Shown: in pieces, positions 4,445 to 26,215 of the stretch
Layout: the number at the start of each line of letters is the position of its first letter
How positions within the stretch are numbered: position 1 is the stretch's first letter
The notes under the pieces: model-generated
Seen by the model: the letters and a program-made list of their open reading frames with translations, nothing else
The model's database searches: none
What the model was told of the DNA's origin: nothing
Assembly: GCA_014859225.1 (NCBI GenBank)
Contig: JACUUP010000001.1
Span: 1 to 46,456, forward strand
Direction of reading: 5' to 3'
Source of the DNA: Candidatus Aerophobota bacterium
GTDB lineage: Bacteria; Aerophobota; Aerophobia; Aerophobales; B3-G15
DNA length: 46,456 nucleotides
Position numbers and translations under genes: made by a program

Positions 4445-4804
4445 TTATCCAATATACCTCATCCTGTATTTGTCTGGCTCTACTACGCAAAAATACTTAT
4501 GTAATTGTGTTTCAACGTGTTCTCGGAGAACTCGCTTAAGCTCTTTATGTATCTCATTGATACTCATAGGTTTACCTCTCAGTAGAATTACACCTGAGGA
4601 TGAGATTTTCTCAATAAATACAAGAGCACCAAAATCCTTATCCCGTGTAATAAATATCCGATTCGTCTCTTTGGCTTTTTTTAATAGTTCACGGTCTGAT
4701 GCCCTGTGCATCCCAATTTCCCGAGCGGTAACAACATTGTGTCCCAATTTTATCAGATAATCAATTGTTACCTGATAGATATCCTGGTCAATTAAGAAAT
4801 GCAT
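4445..4804 (-). CDS. DUF5615-type PIN-like (Mut7-C-like) putative toxin
   Basis: 119 aa. MHFLIDQDI...REIGMHRASDRELLKKAKETNRIFITRDKDFG is the pattern of DUF5615 proteins that pair with DUF433. Overlaps the upstream gene by 1 nt. Confidence 0.7.
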   Translation of the reverse strand: MHFLIDQDIYQVTIDYLIKLGHNVVTAREIGMHRASDRELLKKAKETNRIFITRDKDFGALVFIEKISSSGVILLRGKPMSINEIHKELKRVLREHVETQLHKYFCVVEPDKYRMRYIG

Positions 4805-5070
4805 TATATCTTTTCAAGGTGAACTTCTTCTGAGCGCACAATATCAGTAGCATAGCTAACGCAAGCCTTAACATCATCGGTATCTAAATCGGGATAATAT
4901 TTAGTTACTATCTCCTCAAACGGAATACCTTCCTGCACTAATTCGAGCACATCCTCTACAGTAATCCGTGTACCGGCTATACAGGGTTTGCCAAAGTGAA
5001 TATTTGGGTCAATAACTATTCTTTCTGTATATTTTTCTTTTTTCGCCATTCTTAAACTCCTTTTCAGCAA
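4804..5070 (-). CDS. DUF433 domain putative antitoxin
   Basis: 88 aa. IDPNIHFGKPCIAGTRITVEDVLELVQEGIPFEEIVTKYYPDLDTDDVKACVSYA matches the DUF433 signature (FGKP.I.GTRI.V..VL). AAGGAG RBS and its own promoter. Confidence 0.75.
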   Translation of the reverse strand: MLKRSLRMAKKEKYTERIVIDPNIHFGKPCIAGTRITVEDVLELVQEGIPFEEIVTKYYPDLDTDDVKACVSYATDIVRSEEVHLEKI

Positions 5071-5162: not shown

Positions 5163-5855
5163 TTATTCATCTTTGTCCCTACGCTCCTGCACCTTTCTTT
5201 TTATCCTTTCCATCATGTCTTTCAACTTCTGTGTTTGTTTTCGCTCCTCTTCTGTTTTTGGTTCAAGCTCAGGTCTTGTTACTCTCCAGGTAACCTTTCT
5301 ACACACAGCATCTTCAGGATAAGCACCAGGGTCATAAAGAGTGTAGTCCCTGAATTTTGTGGACTTTTCCTGATAACAGGACCATACTGCCTGTCTTATA
5401 ACATCAGGATGCCCCTCATTTAGAAGATTGACGAGGGACACCTGTTTTCTTAACCTTTCCACTATCTCCGAAGGGATATTAAATAGATAAGGTGTTGGAG
5501 CCTTTGCTCCGATAATTTTCTTTCTCTCATCTATCCCATTTTTAAAAAGCTTCATAAGGGCATCACCTGTTGCATGGCCAGGAGATTCAGGTCCGGCAAG
5601 CACAAGATAACGGATATTGGGATTTGCCACCAGGTTACAGACCATCTTCTCTATCCCGATGTTCTCTGTTTGAAGAGTTCCAGATAAGGCGGCTCCCGCC
5701 TCAACTCCCACCCTTACCAGATTTTCAATGTCAGGGGGAATATTATCATAAGGATAGTTCAGAATAATCACCACTGCAACAGGTGATAGGTCATTTCCTC
5801 TCAGGTAATGCCCTTCTTCTGGGGGATAATCAGCCGGGGGTTGAATTTTTCGCAT
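5163..5855 (-). CDS. soluble MtrA-like corrinoid-binding protein (homologue of tetrahydromethanopterin S-methyltransferase subunit A)
   Basis: 230 aa. ...SPVAVVIL...GTLQTENIGIEKMVCNLVANPNIRYLVLAGPESPGHATGDALMKLFKNGIDERKKIIGAKAPTPYLFNIPSEIVERLRKQVSLVNLLNE aligns with my recollection of MtrA ([41 protein letters not shown]...), including the GH histidine. The C-terminus is a K/E-rich tail rather than the membrane helix of MtrA. Confidence 0.75.
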   Translation of the reverse strand: MRKIQPPADYPPEEGHYLRGNDLSPVAVVIILNYPYDNIPPDIENLVRVGVEAGAALSGTLQTENIGIEKMVCNLVANPNIRYLVLAGPESPGHATGDALMKLFKNGIDERKKIIGAKAPTPYLFNIPSEIVERLRKQVSLVNLLNEGHPDVIRQAVWSCYQEKSTKFRDYTLYDPGAYPEDAVCRKVTWRVTRPELEPKTEEERKQTQKLKDMMERIKRKVQERRDKDE

Positions 5856-5874: not shown

Positions 5875-6309
5875 TTATGCCTCTTTCAGAGCATCTACAA
5901 TTAAGTTTTTTGCCTTCTCCACATCTTCCTGAGAAATATACTCCATTAAGGGTTTTAGACTCTTTCCAATATCCTCATGAAGCGCTTTTTTCTTCATCCC
6001 TATATCTCTTGCCAGGACAAAACTTTTGGTTGGTTTAAATCCTGCCTCTTCCACCACTTTTCTTGAGCACTCACTGGGACATCCATCAACGGTAATTATT
6101 TTCTTTGCTGCCTTTGTCTTACCATGAACGGGAGGCACGCCTACCGGAAGTCCAGCCAGGCATCCTATTGCTACTTTATCAAGACCAACTTCTTTCACTG
6201 CTTCCATGCTGGCAAGCGCTGCAACAATTCCTGTATTAGAGAGTCCTCCAAAGCAGTTAAAAATGATATTTTCATGCGTTGGCATTCCTTCTTTCCATTC
6301 TGGCATCAT
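5875..6309 (-). CDS. DGC-domain putative zinc-binding protein
   Basis: VDGCPSEC (the DGC motif) plus two further Cys (NCFGG, IGCLAG). I prefer the ATG at 6309, which follows AAAGGAGGAAGA. That ATG overlaps the stop of the upstream thioredoxin-fold gene (ATGA). The track start at 6327 would overlap by 22 nt. Confidence 0.65.
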   Translation of the reverse strand: MMPEWKEGMPTHENIIFNCFGGLSNTGIVAALASMEAVKEVGLDKVAIGCLAGLPVGVPPVHGKTKAAKKIITVDGCPSECSRKVVEEAGFKPTKSFVLARDIGMKKKALHEDIGKSLKPLMEYISQEDVEKAKNLIVDALKEA

Positions 6310-6545
6310 TCTTCCTCCTTTAACCATTTCTTTATTTTATCAGGTGAGGCAATCTCCCCTGAACATTTAATTTTGCCATCAATGGCAAGCGCCGGAGTCA
6401 TCATCACCCCGAACTTACTAATTTCTCGTACATCTTGCACCTTTTCAATCTCGGCTTCAATACCAAGCTCTTCAATTGCTTCCCTGGCATTTGCCTCTAA
6501 TTTCCTGCATTTTGCACAACCTATTCCAAGGACTTGGACTTTCAT
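6306..6545 (-). CDS. small thioredoxin-fold protein (redox-active disulfide protein 2 / Thioredoxin_3 type)
   Basis: 79 aa. MKVQVLGIGCAKCRKLEANAREAIEELGIEAEIEKVQDVREISKFGVMMTPALAIDGK has the CxxC (CAKC) and the family's typical layout. Confidence 0.8.
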   Translation of the reverse strand: MKVQVLGIGCAKCRKLEANAREAIEELGIEAEIEKVQDVREISKFGVMMTPALAIDGKIKCSGEIASPDKIKKWLKEEE

Positions 6546-6577: not shown

Positions 6578-7612
6578 TTAAAATACAAATGTTCCAAAAA
6601 TCATCCCGATAAAAGTGGACATAATAACAACTAAACCTATGTAAACAAGTGCCCTCTTTGTCCCCATAATACTTCTTATCACCAGCATATTAGGAAGGGA
6701 AAGTGCAGGCCCTGCAAGAAGAAGAGCCAGGGCAGGCCCTCGTCCCATACCCAAATCAAGAAAAGCTCTTAAGATGGGAACCTCGGTTAAGGTGGCAAAG
6801 TACATAAGAGCCCCGGCAACTGATGCTATGAAATTAGACCTTAGGGCATTTCCTCCCACCCAGGTCCTTATCACCTCAGGTGGTAAATACTCCCTGATTA
6901 TCCCGGCAGCAAACACTCCCACAAGAAGCCAGGGCAAAATAAGCCTGGTAAACTGCCAGGTTGCGGCAAGCCAGGATACAACTTCCTCTTTGCTGAACCA
7001 GAGCTTCAGCAGGATGACCAGGAAAACAAGTAACGCCACCACTATCCACCACCTCCCCCAGGCACCAAAAATGAGAATTGCTACGAGGTCGGCAAAAAAC
7101 AAAAGGGTTACAAGGGGATTTTTCCGGGAATCGTCAGTATCAGCTGTAAGGACAAACTCCTTTTTCTTCCCTTTCTCCCTTTTTTCCTGGAATAATTTTG
7201 CCATTATAAGTCCAATAATGATGGAAAAGCCAACTGCTCCAATTGCTCGTGCTATACCAAGCTCTATCCCTAAAAGACGTGCAGAGTAAATAATGGCAAG
7301 AAGGTTGATGGCAGGCCCTGAGTAGAGAAAAGTCGTGGCAGGGCCTATGCCTGCTCCCATAGTATATATCCCGGAGAAAAGGGGAAGAATCGTGCAGCTA
7401 CACACAGCAAGCACTGTTCCTGCAACCGATGCGATAGCGTAGGATAGGAATTTATTGGCAGATGGACCAAAATATTTTAAAATTACCTCCTTTTTGACCA
7501 TGCTGCTTATTGCCCCGGCTATGAAAAATGCAGGAACAAGACAGGTCAAAACATGAGCCGAGAGATACTCAAGTAGTGCCCTTGCCCCTGATAAGAAAAC
7601 GGATACGAACAT
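6578..7612 (-). CDS. ArsP-like (PF03773/DUF318-type) permease
   Basis: 344 aa and polytopic. AVCSCTILPLF keeps the vicinal Cys pair of the ArsP TPFCSCS motif. Lies immediately downstream of arsR. Confidence 0.75.
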   Translation of the reverse strand: MFVSVFLSGARALLEYLSAHVLTCLVPAFFIAGAISSMVKKEVILKYFGPSANKFLSYAIASVAGTVLAVCSCTILPLFSGIYTMGAGIGPATTFLYSGPAINLLAIIYSARLLGIELGIARAIGAVGFSIIIGLIMAKLFQEKREKGKKKEFVLTADTDDSRKNPLVTLLFFADLVAILIFGAWGRWWIVVALLVFLVILLKLWFSKEEVVSWLAATWQFTRLILPWLLVGVFAAGIIREYLPPEVIRTWVGGNALRSNFIASVAGALMYFATLTEVPILRAFLDLGMGRGPALALLLAGPALSLPNMLVIRSIMGTKRALVYIGLVVIMSTFIGMIFGTFVF

Positions 7613-7669: not shown

Positions 7670-7981
7670 TTAAGTTAACAGGGCCATTTTTTCCTTTACC
7701 AGTTTTTTTACAAAAGATAAAACAAGCTCAAGTATTTTAAACACATTGTCATCCTGCACCCGGTAGTAAACACTTACTCCCTCCTTTCTTGAGGAAAGTA
7801 TCCCGGCTCTTTTTAAAGCAGCAAGATGACGGGAGACATTGGATTGCTCTTCTCCTAAGTAAGGAAAAATCTCGCACACACATCTTTCCCCTTCCCTCAG
7901 GTAGTTAACAATTCTTATTCTTGTGGGATGCGAGAGTGCCTTCAAATACTCAGCCTGTGCCTCATACACCCTCTGGTTCAT
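7670..7981 (-). CDS. arsR: ArsR/SmtB family metal(loid)-responsive repressor
   Basis: 103 aa. LKALSHPTRIRIVNYL...ERCVCEI...SNVSRHLAALKRAGIL is a winged HTH with the CVC alpha-3 site of As(III)-type ArsR. Confidence 0.9.
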   Translation of the reverse strand: MNQRVYEAQAEYLKALSHPTRIRIVNYLREGERCVCEIFPYLGEEQSNVSRHLAALKRAGILSSRKEGVSVYYRVQDDNVFKILELVLSFVKKLVKEKMALLT

Positions 7982-8000
7982 TTCATTCTCCTTTTATGCT

Positions 8001-8052
8001 TTTATGATTAGATGCTCATAAAGTATTATAAATAAAATTATACTACTGTCAA
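8001..8052 (-). promoter_or_regulatory. arsR (cassette 1) promoter and putative operator
   Basis: On the minus strand: TTGACA (8052-8047), 16-nt spacer, TATAAT (8030-8025). The inverted repeat TTTATGA-N8-TCATAAA (8001-8022) lies just downstream of the -10. The same architecture recurs at cassette 2. Confidence 0.55.
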
Positions 8053-8609: not shown

Positions 8610-8939
8610 ATGAGACTAAATGAAAAGGAGGAACTTGCACTGAGAAAATTTAGATCGACAATAGAAAAAGTATTAGGAGGTAATCTTGTAGAAGTAAAGT
8701 TGTTTGGCTCCAGAGTTCGTGGAGACGCTCGGAAGGACTCTGATATAGATGTACTAGTAATCATATCAAGTGGTGACTGGCGGATGCGGGATGTAATTTA
8801 TGACATAGCTACTGATGTACTTCTTGAAACTGAAGTTTGCATATCTCCAAAGGTTATCAACAGAAAGGAGTATGAGTATCTTTCCAATATAGGAGCTCCT
8901 TTTATAACAAATGTTATTCGAGAAGGAATTACAGTATGA
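8610..8939 (+). CDS. MNT-type nucleotidyltransferase (antitoxin of HEPN/MNT type VII TA)
   Basis: 109 aa. LFGSRVRGDARKDSDIDVLVI is the GS-x-RG...DxD minimal nucleotidyltransferase motif. GGAGGA RBS. Stop overlaps the HEPN start (ATGA). Confidence 0.85.
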   Translation: MRLNEKEELALRKFRSTIEKVLGGNLVEVKLFGSRVRGDARKDSDIDVLVIISSGDWRMRDVIYDIATDVLLETEVCISPKVINRKEYEYLSNIGAPFITNVIREGITV

Positions 8940-9325
8940 ACGAAAGGGAGTGGGCTAATAAAGAATTGATACGGGCTAAAAAGGCTCTTCTTGCGGCAAA
9001 GACGCTATTAGAGAAAGATTTGTTTGAGGATTGTGTCTCCAGAGCTTATTACGCTGTCCTTCATGCTGCAAAGGCAGCTTTGACCTTATCTAAAATTGAA
9101 GTGGATACCCATAATGGAGTACGAAGAATGTTTGGCCTTCATCTTGTTAAAACGGGAAAAATAGAGAAAGAATTTGCGAAAATACTCACAAGAGAGCAAG
9201 AAGATAGAGAAATGGGAGACTATGAAGTTGGTGTCGAAATAGAAGAAGAAACAGCAAGACAAAGAGTTAATGAGGCTGAGAAATTTATACGAAGAATTGA
9301 ACAATACCTTCAGGTAACTAAGTAA
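8936..9325 (+). CDS. HEPN domain protein (toxin of HEPN/MNT TA)
   Basis: 129 aa. SRAYYAVLHAAKA contains the Rx4-6H HEPN motif. All-helical composition, paired with MNT. Confidence 0.85.
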   Translation: MNEREWANKELIRAKKALLAAKTLLEKDLFEDCVSRAYYAVLHAAKAALTLSKIEVDTHNGVRRMFGLHLVKTGKIEKEFAKILTREQEDREMGDYEVGVEIEEETARQRVNEAEKFIRRIEQYLQVTK

Positions 9326-10324: not shown

Positions 10325-10633
10325 TTATTCTGTTTTCACTATCTGCATACCCATTATCCTTACTCCACCCTCTGTCCTCATGGACAAAGTCGCCGGCTTC
10401 GTAATAAGGCACTGTCCTTCTCTGATGGTTATCTTTTCCTCGTCCACCGTCACCTCAGCTTCTCCCTCAACAACATAAAAAATGACATGAGAAGACATCT
10501 CACAAACTGGAATTTTGTCCCCGGGAGATAGTGCAATAATTAATGTCTTAAATTCCTTTGCCTTATGAAAAACATTCTTTTGCCTCTCTTCATACGGGTA
10601 TGCGGTCATTGTTTTGAGGTCAAATACCTGCAT
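10325..10633 (-). CDS. cupin domain protein
   Basis: 102 aa. SSHVIFYVVEGEAEVTVDEEKITIREGQCL is typical of a small monocupin beta-barrel. Overlaps the upstream permease gene. Confidence 0.7.
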   Translation of the reverse strand: MQVFDLKTMTAYPYEERQKNVFHKAKEFKTLIIALSPGDKIPVCEMSSHVIFYVVEGEAEVTVDEEKITIREGQCLITKPATLSMRTEGGVRIMGMQIVKTE

Positions 10634-11192
10634 TATTTTCTTCTCCTTTTTTAGATTTGTTCATTTTTTTATCGCCCCATTCAACTACTCGTTCTATAAA
10701 AAACCCCATGGCGGCCACCAGGATAATAGTTAGAATGAGTCTGGTAGCCATAAATCCGAATCCTAAAAATTGTAGCTCCACCATCTCCTGAGGAATCTTT
10801 ATGCACGCCCAGGCAGATAGAAAAATAACTATATTGGAGATACTTGCCCCTTTTTTAATGAGAGCCGAAGCTAAAGGAAACGCCACATAAAGAGGACCTG
10901 TGGGAAGCGCACCAAAAAGGATTGCCACAAAGATACCCTTTGTACCTGAAGTTTTGCCCAAATACTTTACCACAAGCTCCCTGGAGATAAAAACACTGAA
11001 AAGACCCATTAAAACCATTACTGCAGGAAGTATCATGATCATCTCAAGAAAAAAATCCCAGGCGGTAGTAGTTACTGGTCCTTTTTTCTCCGGGAAAACT
11101 ACAATAAGAATCGCTACGAAAATCACTATTGCTGCCAGCATAGCCCAATCTCTTACCAATTTTCCTGTTTGTTTTCCTTTTTTACCCCTCAT
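10620..11192 (-). CDS. permease, second component of a two-gene PF03773-like transporter
   Basis: 190 aa with about 5 TM segments. GALPTGPLYVAFPLASALIKKGASISNIVIFLSAWACIK resembles the equivalent segment of the upstream partner. ATGA overlap with that partner. Confidence 0.7.
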   Translation of the reverse strand: MRGKKGKQTGKLVRDWAMLAAIVIFVAILIVVFPEKKGPVTTTAWDFFLEMIMILPAVMVLMGLFSVFISRELVVKYLGKTSGTKGIFVAILFGALPTGPLYVAFPLASALIKKGASISNIVIFLSAWACIKIPQEMVELQFLGFGFMATRLILTIILVAAMGFFIERVVEWGDKKMNKSKKGEENNAGI

Positions 11193-11671
11193 AGAACCGC
11201 CCCCATAATAAGAGCAATAACAATGGCAATGACAAAACTTATTCCATTACGAAGAAAAGCCATTTTCTTTCCCAGTTCTTTTATCTCCAGAGGCAAGGTA
11301 ACTGTTCCAATCATGGTCAATGTGGTGATAAATGCTGCCACGGCAGAAATTGATGCCCCGCTTTTAAGAAGCGATGCAGCAAGGGGAAAGGAGACAAGAG
11401 CTGGAATGTGCAAAACTGCCCCTACCATGGCAATAATAACTATTCCAATCAGGCCGGATTGCTCACCTATAAATTGAGAAATTTTTTCCGGTGGGATAAA
11501 TCCTAAAAGAAGACCAATGAGGATGACAATAATAAGCACAACCGGCAAAATACGCAAAAGTGATTTTGCTGCTACTATAAGAGATTTTTTTGTTTTTTCT
11601 TTGTTTTTAAAAACCGCAAAGAAAAGACAACTAAGGGCAAAGACATTTATGAAAACAGCGGTTAGACTCAT
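11189..11671 (-). CDS. permease, first component of a two-gene PF03773-like transporter
   Basis: 160 aa. AVLHIPALVSFPLAASLLKSGASISAVAAFITTLTMIG is paralogous to the partner gene. Confidence 0.7.
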   Translation of the reverse strand: MSLTAVFINVFALSCLFFAVFKNKEKTKKSLIVAAKSLLRILPVVLIIVILIGLLLGFIPPEKISQFIGEQSGLIGIVIIAMVGAVLHIPALVSFPLAASLLKSGASISAVAAFITTLTMIGTVTLPLEIKELGKKMAFLRNGISFVIAIVIALIMGAVL

Positions 11672-11704: not shown

Positions 11705-11786
11705 AAAAAGGGGACAGATTTATTTTTTTCTTGTGGATACAACAAAGAGACACAAAAAAAGAGAAAATAAATCTGTCCCCTTTTTT
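11705..11786. repeat. long perfect hairpin element, copy A (bidirectional terminator-like)
   Basis: The arms AAAAAGGGGACAGATTTATTTT (11705-11726) and AAAATAAATCTGTCCCCTTTTT (11765-11786) are perfect reverse complements around a 38-nt loop, with T-runs on both strands. The same arms recur at 15764-15831. Confidence 0.85.
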
Positions 11787-15036: not shown

Positions 15037-15600
15037 TCACAGCTCAGGAGTGGCATACCCTGCGTCCTTTAGAACCTTCAGCAAACTTTCTCTTGCCTTT
15101 TTGTATTCATCGGTAAAAAAAGGCTTGCACATATCAATAGATACTTCCTCAGTCACCAGTTTACTGGCAAAAGCCATGCAGGTTGCCTGTCCACAATCTC
15201 CACAGTTGGTTCGGGGTAAAAGCTTGTAGATACCAAGGGCTGTTAATTTGGCACGCGTCTTGTAGCTCGGAGTAATCGTGTCTTTGTCCTCGTAGGTTCG
15301 GTTGATCAGGTCTTTTACCTCACCCAGAACTTTTTTTGCCTCTTCAGGATTTTTGCATCCTGCAACAAGCATATTTTCAGGATAAAGAGTAACCCCTCTA
15401 CCCTCTTGCCTAAAAGAAAGTGTCCTGGCTTCTGGATTATAGATAGTCCCTTTAAAGATGGCATTCAAGTAGGGAAATGCAGGGCTAATATCACCTATAA
15501 GCTCTGCTGTAGCCGTAACCGTCTCTACCTCTCCGGGACGGCAGGGTGGAAAAAAGGTATTGATTTTACGAAGCTCTTTGAGAAGCATACACCCTCTCAT
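15037..15600 (-). CDS. protein with C-terminal CFeSP (AcsC)-type [4Fe-4S] domain; N-terminal ~125 aa unknown
   Basis: LTALGIYKLLPRTNCGDCGQATCMAFASKLVTEEVSIDMCKPF aligns with my recollection of the N-terminal Fe-S domain of the corrinoid iron-sulfur protein large subunit (LTGLEIYKQLPKKNCGECGTPTCLAFAMNLASGKASLDSCPY). The exact start (Met1 or Met5) is uncertain. Confidence 0.7.
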   Translation of the reverse strand: MRGCMLLKELRKINTFFPPCRPGEVETVTATAELIGDISPAFPYLNAIFKGTIYNPEARTLSFRQEGRGVTLYPENMLVAGCKNPEEAKKVLGEVKDLINRTYEDKDTITPSYKTRAKLTALGIYKLLPRTNCGDCGQATCMAFASKLVTEEVSIDMCKPFFTDEYKKARESLLKVLKDAGYATPEL

Positions 15601-15763
15601 AATAGTTATTGTCTACTTTAACCATGTTGGTCAGCTCCTGGTATTTAATCGTAAAAGACAATTAGCAAAAAGCAGCCTACCCTACTCAAATTCCAACCAG
15701 CAAACCTTATAATAGAACACAGGAGGAAAATGTCAAATATCGCATTCTATATCAAAAAGTATC

Positions 15764-15831
15764 AAAAAGGGGACAGATTTATTTTCTGCTTTGCAGGAAG
15801 AAAATTAAAGAAAATAAATCTGTCCCCTTTT
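15764..15831. repeat. long perfect hairpin element, copy B
   Basis: AAAAAGGGGACAGATTTATTTT (15764-15785) and AAAATAAATCTGTCCCCTTTT (15811-15831). The arms are identical to copy A, but the 25-nt loop is unrelated. Confidence 0.85.
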
Positions 15832-15857
15832 ATTTTGGAGGATATTCAGCTGGAGGT

Positions 15858-16100
15858 TCAACTTTTCTCATTCTTGAGCCATTTTTTTATTTTATCAGGT
15901 GAGGCAATCTCCCCTGAACACATGAGCTTGCCGTCAATGGCAAGAGCCGGGGTCATCATTACCCCGAATTTGCTAATTTCTCGCACATCCTGCACCTTCT
16001 CAATCTCGGCTTCAACACCGAGCTCATCAATGGCTTCCCTGGCATTTGCCTCAAGCTTTCTACACTTTGCACAACCTGTTCCAAGAATCTGAACTTTCAT
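15858..16100 (-). CDS. small thioredoxin-fold protein (paralogue of 6306-6545)
   Basis: MKVQILGTGCAKCRKLEANAREAIDELGVEAEIEKVQDVREISKFGVMMTPALAIDGK... About 90% identical by hand alignment to the cassette 1 protein. ATG at 16100 with a GGGAGGG RBS. The longer track ORF (to 16178) overlaps the permease. Confidence 0.8.
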   Translation of the reverse strand: MKVQILGTGCAKCRKLEANAREAIDELGVEAEIEKVQDVREISKFGVMMTPALAIDGKLMCSGEIASPDKIKKWLKNEKS

Positions 16101-16128
16101 ACTATTCACCCTCCCTGCCGTGTTTTTT

Positions 16129-17166
16129 TTAAAACACAAATATTCCAAAAAGCATCCCGATAAAGGTGGACATAGCAACTACTAAAGTTATGTAAACAAG
16201 TGCTCTTTTTGTTCCCATGATGCTTCTTATAACGAGCATATTCGGGAGCGAGAGCGCAGGTCCAGCAAGAAGGAGCGCTAAGGCTGGCCCTCTTCCCATA
16301 CCTAAATCGAGAAAGGCTCGCAGGATTGGAACCTCGGTCAACGTGGCAAAGTACATCAATGACCCGGCAACTGATGCTATGAAATTAGAACGTAGTGCGT
16401 TTCCTCCCACCCAGGTCCTTATCACCTCAGGTGGCAAAAACTCTCTGATTATCCCGGCAGCAAATACTCCCACAAGGAGCCAGGGCAAAATTAGCAGGAC
16501 AAACTGATAGGTTGCTGCAAGCCAGGACAAAATCTCATTCTTGGTGAACCAGATTTTCAGCACAATGACCAGGAGCACGAGCAAGCCTGTAACTATCAAC
16601 CACTGTCCCCAGGCACCAAAAATGAGGATTCCTACGAGGTCGGCAAAGAATAAAAGGACTGCAGCAGGATTTTTTGAAGGTGTTTTGGGGTCAGCTACCG
16701 GAGAAAATTTTACCTTTTCCGCATCCTTTGTCCTTTTTTTCTCAAATATAGATGACATTATAAGACCAATAACGATGGAAAAGCCAACTGCCCCAATTGC
16801 TCGTGCTATACCAAGCTCTATCCCTAAAAGACGCGCCGAGTAAATAATGGCAAGCAGATTGATAGCAGGGCCTGAGTATAAAAAAGTGGTGGCAGGACCT
16901 ATTCCTGCTCCCAGGCTGTATATTCCGGAAAAAAGGGGAAGGATGGTGCAACTGCAAACAGCAAGCACTGTTCCTGCAACTGATGCTATGGCGTAGGATA
17001 AAACCTTGTTGGCAGAAGGTCCAAAGTACTTCAAGATAATTTCTTTTTTCACCATACTGCTTATCGCCCCGGCAATAAAAAAAGCAGGAACAAGACAGGT
17101 TAAAACATGAGCCGAGAGATACTCAATGAGTGCCCTCACCCCTGATAAGAGAATGGACACTAACAT
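16129..17166 (-). CDS. ArsP-like (PF03773-type) permease, paralogue of 6578-7612
   Basis: 345 aa, collinear with the cassette 1 permease and with the same AVCSCTILPLF motif. Most differences lie in the central loop. Confidence 0.75.
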   Translation of the reverse strand: MLVSILLSGVRALIEYLSAHVLTCLVPAFFIAGAISSMVKKEIILKYFGPSANKVLSYAIASVAGTVLAVCSCTILPLFSGIYSLGAGIGPATTFLYSGPAINLLAIIYSARLLGIELGIARAIGAVGFSIVIGLIMSSIFEKKRTKDAEKVKFSPVADPKTPSKNPAAVLLFFADLVGILIFGAWGQWLIVTGLLVLLVIVLKIWFTKNEILSWLAATYQFVLLILPWLLVGVFAAGIIREFLPPEVIRTWVGGNALRSNFIASVAGSLMYFATLTEVPILRAFLDLGMGRGPALALLLAGPALSLPNMLVIRSIMGTKRALVYITLVVAMSTFIGMLFGIFVF

Positions 17167-17221
17167 TTGTTTCTCCTTTTTATGATTAAATGGTCAGCTT
17201 AGCATATATTGCGGAAAAATT

Positions 17222-17533
17222 TTAGCTTAAAATGGCGGCTTTTTCCTTTGCTACTTTTTTTACAAAAGATAAAACAAGCTCAAGTACCTTAAACACATTT
17301 TCATCCTGCACTCTGTAATAAACACTTACCCCCTTTTTCCTTGAAGAAAGTATCCCTGCTCTTTTTAAAGCAGCAAGGTGGCGCGAGATATTGGACTGTT
17401 CCTCCCCAAGATGAGGAAAAATCTCACATACACACATCTCATTCTTCCTCAAATACTCAACAATCTTTATCCTGGTTGGATGAGATAGCGCCTTGAAATA
17501 TTTTGCCTGTGCCTCATAAATTTTTCCATCCAC
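17222..17533 (-). CDS. arsR: ArsR/SmtB family repressor, paralogue of 7670-7981
   Basis: 103 aa. NEMCVCEI keeps the CVC site. 82 of 103 residues are identical to the cassette 1 ArsR by my hand alignment. Confidence 0.9.
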   Translation of the reverse strand: MDGKIYEAQAKYFKALSHPTRIKIVEYLRKNEMCVCEIFPHLGEEQSNISRHLAALKRAGILSSRKKGVSVYYRVQDENVFKVLELVLSFVKKVAKEKAAILS

Positions 17534-17555
17534 CGTAGTTTCCTTTATTTATGCT

Positions 17556-17607
17556 TTTATGGTTAAATACTCATAAAGTGTTATAAATAAAATCATCTTC
17601 CTGTCAA
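17556..17607 (-). promoter_or_regulatory. arsR (cassette 2) promoter and putative operator
   Basis: On the minus strand: TTGACA (17607-17602), 16-nt spacer, TATAAC (17585-17580). The inverted repeat TTTATGG-N8-TCATAAA (17556-17577) sits in the same relative position as in cassette 1. Confidence 0.5.
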
Positions 17608-17696: not shown

Positions 17697-18044
17697 TCAG
17701 GAGCGTACCATAGTTAAAACCATCTTAAATTTATTTATTGCCTTGAGAACATGGGGCTTATTCGCAGGCATTATAATCATCTCACCTTCTTTTACACAAA
17801 AGGGTTTGCCAGAGATAGCAATCTCTGCCTCACCTTCAACAAGAAAGATAAGAGCATCAAAAGGTGTTGTATGCTCACTGAGTCCCTGTCCTTTATCAAA
17901 AGCAAAGAAGGTTACTGTGCCTGCTTTCTTATCAATTATGCTTCTACTTACTATAGATTCTTCCTGGTATTCTGCCAGCTCAGTTAGTTTTAGAGATCTG
18001 GCAACAAGCTTTTCCATAGTTTCTTGCCTGTTATTTTGCTCCAT
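17697..18044 (-). CDS. cupin domain protein
   Basis: 115 aa. GLSEHTTPFDALIFLVEGEAEIAISGKPFCVKEGEMIIMPANKPHVL contains the cupin motifs (G.xEH...G...P...H). Confidence 0.75.
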   Translation of the reverse strand: MEQNNRQETMEKLVARSLKLTELAEYQEESIVSRSIIDKKAGTVTFFAFDKGQGLSEHTTPFDALIFLVEGEAEIAISGKPFCVKEGEMIIMPANKPHVLKAINKFKMVLTMVRS

Positions 18045-24799: not shown

Positions 24800-26215
24800 T
24801 TATGTTTTCTTGAGATTTGCTAAAACTTCAAGCTTTTTTTTATCCTGCTCATCTTGTTTATCTTCATCTTGAACCATGGGATTGAGAATTCTTTTCTTCA
24901 TTTTGGACAAGGTCTTCTTATAATAAAGGTTAAAGGCCAAAAGGAGCAAAGCGTACTTCCATCTTCCACCTGAGAATATCCCTGTTAGTCTTTTAAAAAT
25001 AGAGAAAAAGCTAAGGATATTTACATAAGCCCATGCCAACCCTTTATCCAGCTCTTTTGGACTCATTTTTTTTGGTTTAAATACTACATGACCGCAATCA
25101 TAGTTAGACCAATCCCTATCAAATATTCTATTCTCATTTTCCAGCTGCCTATGAAGCCTGGTTCCAGGTAAAGGTGTAAGAATGGAATACTGAGCACTAT
25201 CCAACCTGGTTTTATTTATAAAATCTACAGTCTCCTTAAATATACTTGCATCATGATTATCCATCCCAAATATAAAAGCCGCGTGAAGAAATATCCCAAA
25301 CCGATGGAATCTCTTTATAGCCTCCTCGTAAAACTCAACTTTGTTTTGAGTTTTGCCGACCTCTACAAGCGCATCCTTTGATACCGTCTCGAAACCTACA
25401 AAAAGTGCCTTACAGCCGCTTTTTTGTGCTAATTCTAAAAGCTCTTCATCGTAAGCTGCATTAATAGATGATTGACTCATCCACATTATTTTTAAGGGGA
25501 TAAGAGCTTTGAAAAGTTCTTTAGCATAAGCTTTATTCCCCATAATATTGTCATCAAGAAATGCAAAAAGCCGCCCCTTTAATCCTTTACCTATATGTTC
25601 CTTAATAAAATTTACAACTTGATTTACCGGGCGAAATCTTATTTTTCTACCAAAAAACTCGGTAACTGAGCAAAAAGAACAGTTGTAGGGACATCCTCTG
25701 GTAAGATGAAGAGCTTTGTCCGCAATGTATCTTTTCCCCTTTAAAATATCCCATCTGGGGAACGGTATTTTAGAAAGGTCGGGCAACTTTTCAGCTTTAT
25801 AGATTTTTTGTAAAGCTTCTTTTCCACCCTTTATAAAATCATCCATTAGCTTTTCCCATGCACCCTCAGCTTCTCCAATTACAACCGAATCGGCATGTTG
25901 AAGACCTTCCTCCGGTAAAACAGATACATGGGAGCCTCCCAGCACCACAGGAATTTTCCTATCCCTAAATTGGCGCGCAATTTCATAAGCCCGGGGAGCA
26001 GCAGATGTCATAGTGGTTATGCCTACCAGGTCAATTTTTTTATTAAAATCTATAGGTTCAACATTTTCATCCGTAAGAGTTACCTCAACCCCCGCCGGAG
26101 TAACTGCAGCCACATTGAGCAATCCAAGTGGGGGAATTTTAAAAATCTTTTTCCTCTCCGCTCTCTTTGTTTGAATATTTGCCATCCATGTCGGTGCTAT
26201 TAACTCTACTCGCAT
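24800..26215 (-). CDS. B12-binding domain radical SAM protein (class B, DUF4070-type C-terminus)
   Basis: N-terminal Rossmann-like B12 domain (DLVGITTMTSAAPRAYEIARQFRDRKIPVVLGGSHVS). Radical SAM CPYNCSFC. The C-terminal FDRDWSNYD segment is followed by a hydrophobic helix. Confidence 0.8.
   Translation of the reverse strand: MRVELIAPTWMANIQTKRAERKKIFKIPPLGLLNVAAVTPAGVEVTLTDENVEPIDFNKKIDLVGITTMTSAAPRAYEIARQFRDRKIPVVLGGSHVSVLPEEGLQHADSVVIGEAEGAWEKLMDDFIKGGKEALQKIYKAEKLPDLSKIPFPRWDILKGKRYIADKALHLTRGCPYNCSFCSVTEFFGRKIRFRPVNQVVNFIKEHIGKGLKGRLFAFLDDNIMGNKAYAKELFKALIPLKIMWMSQSSINAAYDEELLELAQKSGCKALFVGFETVSKDALVEVGKTQNKVEFYEEAIKRFHRFGIFLHAAFIFGMDNHDASIFKETVDFINKTRLDSAQYSILTPLPGTRLHRQLENENRIFDRDWSNYDCGHVVFKPKKMSPKELDKGLAWAYVNILSFFSIFKRLTGIFSGGRWKYALLLLAFNLYYKKTLSKMKKRILNPMVQDEDKQDEQDKKKLEVLANLKKT

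Follow-up and report, generated by a model that had tools for sequence, protein, structure and literature searches.

A described system close to the one considered here is operon C of Pseudodesulfovibrio mercurii ND132, in which genes for ArsR, ArsP, ArsE (PF13192) and DGC (PF08859) are reportedly up-regulated by both As(III) and As(V) (preprint 10.1101/2022.10.17.512643). The same core of ArsR, ArsP_1-family permease and thioredoxin-like protein occurs twice in a stretch of 46,456 nucleotides (nt) from Candidatus Aerophobota bacterium (GenBank assembly GCA_014859225.1, contig JACUUP010000001.1, positions 1 to 46,456), hereafter called the window. Cassette 1 continues with a DGC gene, as in P. 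mercurii, and a gene for an MtrA-like protein, while cassette 2 is followed by a gene for a two-domain iron-sulfur (Fe-S) protein with a PF04060 domain, the cassette and this gene together occupying positions 15037-17533. Operon C of P. mercurii has neither a PF04060 protein nor an MtrA-like protein, and the substrate of these permeases is inferred. The family to which the Fe-S protein belongs is very probably a recurrent component of ars and thiol-redox operons in many anaerobic lineages, independent of MtrA-like proteins.

The cluster domain of the Fe-S protein has two known counterparts. The N-terminal domain of the large subunit of the corrinoid iron-sulfur protein (CFeSP; AcsC/CdhE; PDB 2ycl, 4djd, 4c1n and 9fzy) shares PF04060 and the spacing CX2CX4CX16C with it, at 46-48% identity over 54 residues and a root-mean-square deviation (rmsd) of 2.5-2.9 Å. 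CFeSP carries this domain at its N-terminus and is found in a Wood-Ljungdahl context, whereas the domain is C-terminal in the Fe-S protein, which is encoded in an ars and thiol-redox context, lacks the TIM barrel and the corrinoid-binding domain of CFeSP, and has a partner domain that resembles the TATA-binding protein (TBP). According to work from the Ragsdale laboratory, the CFeSP cluster reportedly serves reductive activation of Co(II). The N-terminal domain of RnfB/RsxB belongs to the same Pfam domain but is less similar to the Fe-S protein than that of CFeSP is, and unlike RnfB the Fe-S protein has no membrane anchor, no extra Fer4 domains and no rnf genes nearby.

A two-domain Fe-S family in ars and thiol-redox operons

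The Fe-S gene lies on the minus strand. An open reading frame (ORF) of 187 codons starts at ATG 15600 (15037-15600), but every homologue begins with MLLK and the second ATG (M5) has an AGAGGG Shine-Dalgarno sequence in front of it, so the gene is most likely 15037-15588 and the protein 183 amino acids long. In the longer frame, PF04060 ('FeS') matches residues 128-160 over the full model (1-33) with 53.3 bits against a cutoff of 23, and the same domain is matched by all 28 aligned homologues. The CFeSP gamma-subunit model NF003195 is matched at E = 1e-17 by residues 118-171, corresponding to model positions 2-55 of 450; at 64.2 bits against a cutoff of 306, and with only these positions covered, the protein is not itself a CFeSP large subunit. 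The NCBIfam RnfB models are matched at 3e-7. When a family profile was compared with PDB sequences, CFeSP was found at E = 8e-16, RnfB at 7e-5 to 1e-3 and an archaeal TBP (2z8u) at 0.0075.

The cluster domain (residues ~113-175) is thus predicted to be of the CFeSP/RnfB [4Fe-4S] type, with C129, C132, C137 and C154 (183-residue numbering) as ligands. In the alignment of 28 homologues C129, C137 and C154 do not vary and C132 is kept in at least 90% of the sequences; a fifth cysteine, Cys16, is invariant or nearly so, and a PYL motif is found at 39-41. The AlphaFold2 model of the protein is confident (pLDDT 86), and the identity of 46-48% with the solved CFeSP domains comes from a Foldseek comparison of the C-terminal domain. 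The original prediction had recognised a CFeSP-type [4Fe-4S] domain at the C-terminus and had taken it as dedicated to corrinoid chemistry. The assignment holds, as do the FeS family and the CFeSP-like cluster domain that were expected of a profile search, although the domain is not in the N-terminal position that it has in CFeSP. The dedication does not hold because PF04060 is also present in RnfB, which implies that the domain is a general electron-transfer module.

The N-terminal part gave only noise in Pfam at E ≤ 1. The structure prediction that had been proposed for it yielded a TBP-like domain: modelled alone, it had TBPs as all of its top 27 Foldseek matches in the PDB, over ~80 residues, with TMq 0.48-0.57, rmsd mostly 2.0-3.0 Å and E 0.01-0.2. 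Residues 1-~105 are therefore modelled as a single TBP-like (helix-grip) repeat, for which homology is likely though unproven. One TBP repeat (strand-helix-4 strands-helix) can be superposed on the model with an rmsd of 2.0-2.5 Å and TMq 0.54-0.57, and the case consists of the fold and a marginal E-value. A survey of the TBP-domain superfamily covers TBP, RNase HIII, DNA glycosylases and archaeal single-domain proteins, the monopartite proteins being reported in some Archaea only (Brindefalk et al. 2013, PMC3597702). A term search of the text of that survey found no mention of Fe-S or iron-sulfur.

The TBP-like/[4Fe-4S] family is widespread and uncharacterised. An exhaustive profile search found at least 243 representatives (50%-identity clusters) at E ≤ 1e-30, and about 60 full-length relatives came from a word-indexed search, 157-204 amino acids long and mostly 171-189. 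Named sources include Bipolaricaulota/Acetothermia, KSB3, Chloroflexota, Syntrophales and a deltaproteobacterial metagenome-assembled genome. Database names vary between '(Fe-S)-binding protein', 'Corrinoid/iron-sulfur protein large subunit', 'Fe-S cluster assembly protein' and 'hypothetical protein', and many members are called 'ArsR family metal-binding transcriptional regulator' in IMG. Nothing relevant came from literature searches for the gene combination, for PF04060 together with arsenic or for the IMG product name. Several representatives have N-terminal extensions of ~60 amino acids that resemble miscalled starts.

A query with the single protein over a genome collection gave one locus, and 80 further loci were taken from metagenomes by an alignment query, after which ORFs were called and searched with the cassette proteins. 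In all, 96 loci spanning 626 kb were anchored on the Fe-S gene; at 90% identity they form 82 clusters. Within 4 kb of the Fe-S gene, Acr3 was found in 21 of the 82 clusters, ArsR and Trx_3 in 17 each, ArsP_1 in 13, ArsC in 10, DGC in nine, DsbD and CMD in five each, VKOR in four and ArsM in three. MtrA-like genes were found in none. At least one of ArsR, ArsP_1, Trx_3, DGC, VKOR, Acr3, ArsC and ArsM is present in 31 of the 53 loci with at least 3 kb of flanking sequence. The density of ars and thiol genes served as an internal control: it decreases from 3.8 per 10 kb within 2 kb of the Fe-S gene to 0.84 per 10 kb at 6-8 kb. Among 111 same-strand neighbours without another assignment, the most frequent Pfam matches were SBF/Acr3 (9), thioredoxin (4), LMWPc (3), rhodanese (3), DsbD_TM (3) and methyltransferases (3).

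Tight coupling is frequent in the family, with overlaps of VKOR with FeS and of FeS with Acr3 and with DGC-FeS and Trx-FeS pairs. The order ArsR-ArsP_1-Trx_3-VKOR-FeS is found in one operon (L001), where the VKOR and Fe-S genes overlap by 29 nt, and the longer ArsR-ArsP_1-Trx_3-TauE-Fer4-VKOR-FeS in another (L004). Other arrangements are ArsR-TauE-FeS-Acr3 (L091), FeS-Trx_3-YlbF-YlbF-FeS-CMD (L104) and ferredoxin-unknown-FeS (L102); small ferredoxin genes lie beside the Fe-S gene in L004 and in L102/L103. The operon sets with ArsR, ArsP, Trx_3, VKOR and FeS in L001 (14147-16552) and L004 are situated among the hydrogenase maturation genes hypC/D/E/F, and the L001 operon is ~6 kb from an acetyl-CoA synthase gene that bears an intein with a LAGLIDADG domain.

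The accessory genes of the ArsR-ArsP-thioredoxin cassettes that are common in anaerobes (DGC, MtrA-like, VKOR and the Fe-S protein) lack assigned functions, and enzymes for the anaerobic handling of methylated and pentavalent arsenicals are still to be identified. As a component of ars islands in Bipolaricaulota, Chloroflexota, KSB3, Syntrophales and others, the TBP-like/[4Fe-4S] family is a candidate link of the ferredoxin pool or of Fe-S status to metalloid detoxification.

The paralogous cassettes and the interval before the Fe-S gene

Cassette 2 is an old and intact paralogue of an ArsR-repressed, ArsP-type efflux cassette for a metalloid, probably arsenical, with a dedicated thioredoxin-like protein. 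On the minus strand it consists of arsR (17222-17533; 103 amino acids, GTG start), the permease gene (16129-17166; 345 amino acids) and the gene for an MTH895/ArsE-type thioredoxin-like protein (15858-16100; 80 amino acids). The original prediction had described a collinear, diverged paralogous cassette with a different accessory gene, and its three genes and the Fe-S gene were all found at these coordinates. The corresponding core of cassette 1 is at 7670-7981 (ArsR), 6578-7612 (permease) and 6306-6545 (thioredoxin-like), continued by the DGC-domain gene (5875-6327) and the MtrA-like gene (5163-5855).

ArsR of cassette 2 is an ArsR-type winged helix-turn-helix (HTH) protein (HTH_5, E = 1.8e-16; NF033788, 98.8 bits against a cutoff of 55). 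The cysteine pair of its CVC motif lies in the DNA-recognition region, as in R773-type ArsR, in the sequence EMCVCEIFP, compared with ERCVCEIFP in cassette 1. A CVC motif in this region is the definition of type-1 As(III) sites. The permease matches PF03773 at E = 3.7e-79 (266 bits against a cutoff of 32.3), and the vicinal cysteine pair CSC, in AVCSCTILP, is common to both paralogues. PF03773 and a vicinal cysteine pair are also features of the methylarsenite efflux permease ArsP, of SO_0444 (Cu/Zn efflux) and of SaoE, CSC being described as a signature common to the latter two (preprint 10.1101/2022.07.06.499078). The permease here belongs to the broad family and to neither named subfamily, with 115.4 bits against 300 for SO_0444 and 98.1 against 325 for SaoE. 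The thioredoxin-like protein matches PF13192 (Thioredoxin_3) at E = 1e-28 and TIGR00412 with 106 bits against a cutoff of 62, and has the active site CAKC (GCAKC at residues 9-13). For the locus as a whole, membership of BigR, TsoR or CmtR was likewise rejected with scores far under the cutoffs. The CVC-type ArsR, the CSC permease and the arsenic-induced operon of P. mercurii together suggest a thiophilic metalloid as the export substrate of the cassette, most likely trivalent arsenicals.

The two cassettes are identical at 82 of 103 residues in ArsR (80%), 290 of 345 in the permease (84%) and 71 of 78 in the thioredoxin-like protein (91%) according to BLASTP, in agreement with the hand counts made earlier for ArsR and the thioredoxin-like protein and with the collinear permeases noted then. 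At the DNA level 17623-15873 aligns with 8069-6318 at 81% identity across 1766 bp, reaching ~90 bp upstream of arsR. The three shared genes have a synonymous divergence (dS) of 0.7-1.2 and a ratio of non-synonymous to synonymous divergence (dN/dS) of 0.08-0.15 (Nei-Gojobori), which shows that the duplication is old, as had been proposed, and not recent, and that both copies are under purifying selection.

The conserved promoter and operator architecture that had been noticed also lies inside the DNA alignment. The promoter of cassette 2 (17580-17607, minus strand) has a -35 box TTGACA (17602-17607), a 16-nt spacer and a -10 box TATAAC (17580-17585), and that of cassette 1 (TTGACA-16-TATAAT) matches the consensus at 12 of 12 positions. 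An imperfect palindrome of 25 bp resembling an ArsR operator, CTTTATGAGTATTTAACCATAAAAG, follows in cassette 2 at 17554-17578 (minus strand). Its pattern, CTTTATGAG-N7-CATAAAAG, is found in the window only there and at 7999-8023 upstream of arsR of cassette 1, with 0 occurrences expected by chance. Because both cassettes have the same operator, they probably form one ArsR regulon.

Similar cassettes are found in the closest relatives. In four loci of one metagenome sample series (L094-L097) the order is operator-ArsP-Trx_3-DGC-MtrA-like, with an MtrA-like protein 87% identical to that of the window. They have no arsR, and the same promoter and operator (…TTTATTTATAATACTTTATGAGCATTAAATCATATAAGCATAAA…) lie directly upstream of ArsP (1450-1512 in L094), which implies control in trans; regulation in trans through the shared operator is plausible from the sequences. 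A fifth locus of the same sample series (L087) encodes an Fe-S protein 68% identical to that of the window in the order ArsP_1 - Trx_3 - 34-codon ORF - FeS - ArsR, with a gap of 25 nt before FeS and no hairpin. Its 34-codon ORF (MAEEKHWKEGMPTHENIIFTCFGGLSNT..., 1214-1318) is a truncated DGC gene, 21 of 22 residues matching the N-terminus of DGC in L094. At 900-975 of the same locus the ribosome-binding site and first codons of Trx are tandemly duplicated (~47 nt), which may be an assembly artefact. The layout of these loci indicates that the two-cassette arrangement predates the split of these organisms. The Trx paralogues are 91% identical within each genome and 86-87% identical across genomes, which hints at gene conversion.

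The interval after the thioredoxin gene of cassette 2 also holds a remnant. At 15830-15871 (minus strand), sharing 14 nt with the end of the thioredoxin gene, an ATG with 12 further codons and a stop, ATGAGAAAAGTTGAACCTCCAGCTGAATATCCTCCAAAATAA, encodes MRKVEPPAEYPPK*. It agrees at 33 of 42 nt with the start of the MtrA-like gene of cassette 1 (5814-5855); the next best ungapped window match on either strand reaches 24 of 42. In a tblastn search confined to a stretch of 341 nt its E-value is 3.9e-6, and the peptide fits the N-terminal motif M-x-K-x(2-3)-P-x(2-3)-[YFW]-P-P found in 83 of 120 MtrA-like homologues. Since this remnant follows the thioredoxin gene, cassette 2 appears once to have run from Trx to an MtrA-like gene that has since been deleted down to 13 codons; the order Trx_3 to MtrA-like is intact elsewhere (L105). 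Beyond the 13 codons, tblastn of the stretch from the hairpin to the Fe-S gene gave no further remnant of an MtrA-like, DGC or VKOR gene. With the DGC stub in the relative and the MtrA-like stub in the window, the interval between Trx_3 and the Fe-S gene seems to have been remodelled independently twice. The stubs could also be the ends of conversion tracts instead of simple deletions. The fast turnover that they indicate for the slot downstream of the thioredoxin gene helps in reading operons from metagenomes.

The remnant is followed by a long hairpin at 15765-15831 (minus strand) with perfect arms of 19 nt (15769-15827), GGGGACAGATTTATTTTCT and AGAAAATAAATCTGTCCCC, and a stem extended by an A-run and a T-run. 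It folds at -40.2 kcal/mol (z = -5.3) and is terminator-like in both directions. The terminator scan did not call it, as loops longer than 8 nt exceed its limit, and folding was used instead. The hairpin occurs twice in the window, with identical 19-nt arms, A/T runs and a different loop in the copy at 11710-11780. The element looks like a species-specific repeated palindrome (a bidirectional terminator or similar to repetitive extragenic palindromic sequences). The second copy sits between genes of the same strand. About 30 nt past the hairpin, a sigma-70-type promoter-like site, TTGACA-16-TATTAT, precedes the Fe-S gene at 15709-15736 (minus strand) and matches the consensus at 11 of 12 positions. 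No site resembling the ArsR operator was found upstream of the Fe-S gene at ≤3 mismatches.

Possible roles of the Fe-S protein

The likeliest role of the Fe-S protein, judged from sequence, lies in thiol-based metalloid detoxification, as a low-potential redox relay or as a sensor. An ars-cassette paralogue combined with an ars-linked Fe-S family acting as electron relay is the best explanation for the locus as a whole, at slightly worse than even chances, and the relay mechanism taken separately is a tentative proposal. The relay is preferred because the cluster domain is homologous to two electron-entry modules and because ferredoxins are sometimes adjacent. The cluster domain would be a low-potential one-electron module, as in CFeSP and RnfB, and would receive electrons from a ferredoxin-type donor. 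The electrons would pass via the N-terminal domain and its conserved cysteine to the thiol/disulfide arm of anaerobic metalloid detoxification, namely the Trx_3/ArsE-like protein, DGC, VKOR/DsbD and thioredoxin-dependent ArsC. This input would keep the arm reduced without NADPH-thioredoxin reductase. In members fused to an HTH domain, the same module might act as a redox-sensing input.

Several observations weigh against the relay. Only one conserved cysteine lies outside the cluster motif, and known Fe-S disulfide reductases use a cysteine pair. Among the loci with at least 3 kb of flank, 22 of 53 have none of the scored ars or thiol genes, and the neighbour survey is built on naive ORF calls and single-sequence phmmer queries. 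In the window, the hairpin splits the Fe-S gene from cassette 2, and the separate promoter-like site of the gene lacks an operator. A sensor or regulator would account at least equally well for the members fused to LuxR or MarR HTH domains and for the history of the TBP fold as a nucleic-acid-binding one.

Such a sensor or regulator is the main rival to the relay and almost as likely, though on its own account rather unlikely. The TBP-like domain would bind DNA or a transcription factor, perhaps by pairing into a homodimer that resembles the two-repeat saddle of TBP, and the state of the cluster (redox, or damage by As(III) or other thiophiles) would tune the expression of ars and thiol-stress genes. 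Three members have a C-terminal LuxR/GerE HTH (P0054, P0059 and P0060) and one an N-terminal MarR HTH (P0243). These fusions are rare, about four among 79 word-search matches and 150 listed representatives; most members are stand-alone proteins without a recognised DNA-binding motif, encoded by the last gene of operons in which ArsR is already present. The 27 TBP matches and the profile match to archaeal TBP also fit a sensor or regulator, but the Foldseek E-values for TBP do not go below 0.01, and the helix-grip/TBP fold is also used for binding of ligands or proteins. The IMG name given to many members, an ORF similar to Sigma70_r4 that overlaps the start of the Fe-S gene in L006 and the separate promoter-like site in the window all agree with a regulatory role. 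An N-terminal fusion to a cysteine desulfurase (class-V aminotransferase; P0316) would likewise suit a labile cluster that can be rebuilt.

A more specific version of these ideas, based on the modelled fold, is improbable. The protein might found a bacterial family in which one TBP-fold domain is joined to a CFeSP-type cluster. Such a family might be an Fe-S-gated DNA-binding regulator of arsenic and thiol-stress operons, working as a saddle-like homodimer, or the missing ferredoxin-dependent reductase that turns pentavalent (methyl)arsenicals into the trivalent substrates of ArsP and Acr3 in strict anaerobes. If true, the anaerobic arsenic cycle would in either case gain a new component without a characterised counterpart.

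The original prediction suggested that the Fe-S protein and the MtrA-like protein could be two halves of one corrinoid system. In such a system the Fe-S protein would feed low-potential electrons to Co(II) of the MtrA-like protein of cassette 1. No MtrA-like gene was found in the 96 loci (626 kb) of the Fe-S family and no PF04060 protein in 11 MtrA-like loci (5 distinct). This lack of co-localisation from either side suggests that the two proteins are alternative accessories of the same kind of operon and no conserved pair. The MtrA-like family also appears far more abundant, with 3758 matches at E ≤ 1e-20, a number from another database and thus not strictly comparable with the size of the Fe-S family. 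The proposed link, which might hold for this genome specifically, retains some points in its favour: the start of an MtrA-like gene is kept just upstream of the Fe-S gene, the operator is common to both cassettes, and the metagenome series of the relative holds loci of both cassette types. The cluster domain is nearest to CFeSP (NF003195 at 1e-17 against RnfB at 3e-7), and the L001 operon lies near an acetyl-CoA synthase gene. On the other side, PF04060 also serves RnfB, and the hairpin and the promoter-like site separate the Fe-S gene from cassette 2. Independent transcription of the Fe-S gene had been named in advance as evidence that would speak against the proposal, and its sequence signature, a strong hairpin and a near-consensus promoter before the gene, is present.

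Corrinoid reactivation is accordingly an improbable role here, and the attractive hypothesis is unsupported as a general rule; the duplicated ars-type cassette is in itself ordinary. The likeness to HgcA and HgcB, in that one genome encodes both a corrinoid protein and an Fe-S protein with control of the ArsR type, does not extend far. HgcA and HgcB are adjacent and co-inherited, whereas the genes here are 9.5 kb apart and their families never co-localise in 107 loci; HgcB is a 2x[4Fe-4S] ferredoxin, whereas the Fe-S protein has PF04060. A tempting link to corrinoid reactivation is thereby removed.

The MtrA-like family is large and strongly conserved. The 120 listed homologues share 63-87% identity, and the nearest named homologues of the window protein are from Candidatus Aerophobetes (84% identity). 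The five distinct readable contexts (11 loci) are all inside ars islands: ArsP-Trx_3-DGC-MtrA; ArsR-Trx_3-Fer4-DGC-DGC-DGC-methyltransferase-MtrA beside Acr3 and ArsC; Trx_3-DGC-thioredoxin-DsbD-ArsR-MtrA-ArsC-ArsM-Acr3; ArsR-ArsM-Acr3-ArsC...DGC-DGC-OsmC-Trx_3-MtrA; and MtrA-Acr3. Such surroundings speak for a corrinoid protein involved in arsenic chemistry, and a search of the literature for MtrA together with ars found no description of such a role. In four loci (L098, L100, L105 and L106) the MtrA-like gene is in a full ars island with Acr3, LMWP-type ArsC, an ArsM-like methyltransferase, several DGC genes, a GCV_H fusion, an LplA-like ligase and DsbD.

As improbable as corrinoid reactivation is a role of the Fe-S protein as a carrier of Fe-S clusters or sulfur, with the cluster as cargo, that protects or rebuilds Fe-S proteins under metalloid stress. 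The cysteine desulfurase fusion fits such a role, as do two Aminotran_5 and three rhodanese neighbours and the older database name 'Fe-S cluster assembly protein', but only a small minority of members show such contexts. An N-terminal extension of ~95 amino acids is present in about 13 of the best 150 representatives, for which one sequence gave a faint match to Se_S_carrier (E = 0.07), below threshold, and the other three tested gave nothing. Against a carrier role, the cluster domain is homologous to stable electron-transfer clusters, with all four cysteine ligands from one chain.

Likewise improbable is that the Fe-S gene is a mere neighbour in this genome, expressed from its own promoter after the deletion of the MtrA-like gene and without a functional tie to cassette 2. 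This would account for the strong hairpin, the 11/12 promoter match, the lack of an operator and the absence of other cassette-gene remnants in the 170-nt spacer. Against it stand the dominant ars context of the family and the adjacency of Trx_3 and FeS that recurs in unrelated lineages and, with a gap of only 25 nt, in the closest relative (L087). Transcription could also plausibly continue through a hairpin whose loop is so large.

Neighbouring features of the window

The window is an ordinary bacterial chromosome encoding DnaE, AccC, PFK and LeuC. A B12-binding radical SAM enzyme is encoded at 24800-26215 on the minus strand, ~9 kb from cassette 2, which indicates that cobalamin has other uses in the organism as well. 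Pairs similar to toxin-antitoxin systems flank cassette 1, with DUF433 and a DUF5615/PIN-like protein downstream (4445-5070) and a nucleotidyltransferase and HEPN protein upstream (8610-9325). This suggests an island-like setting for cassette 1 that is prone to exchange.

A third ArsP_1-family locus is found on the minus strand at 10325-11671. Two half-size permease genes lie next to each other there (11189-11671 and 10620-11192), both with matches to the first half of PF03773, and a cupin gene (10325-10633) comes after them. A cupin gene at 17697-18044 also precedes cassette 2, and the similarity between the two cupins is weak (12 of 37 residues).

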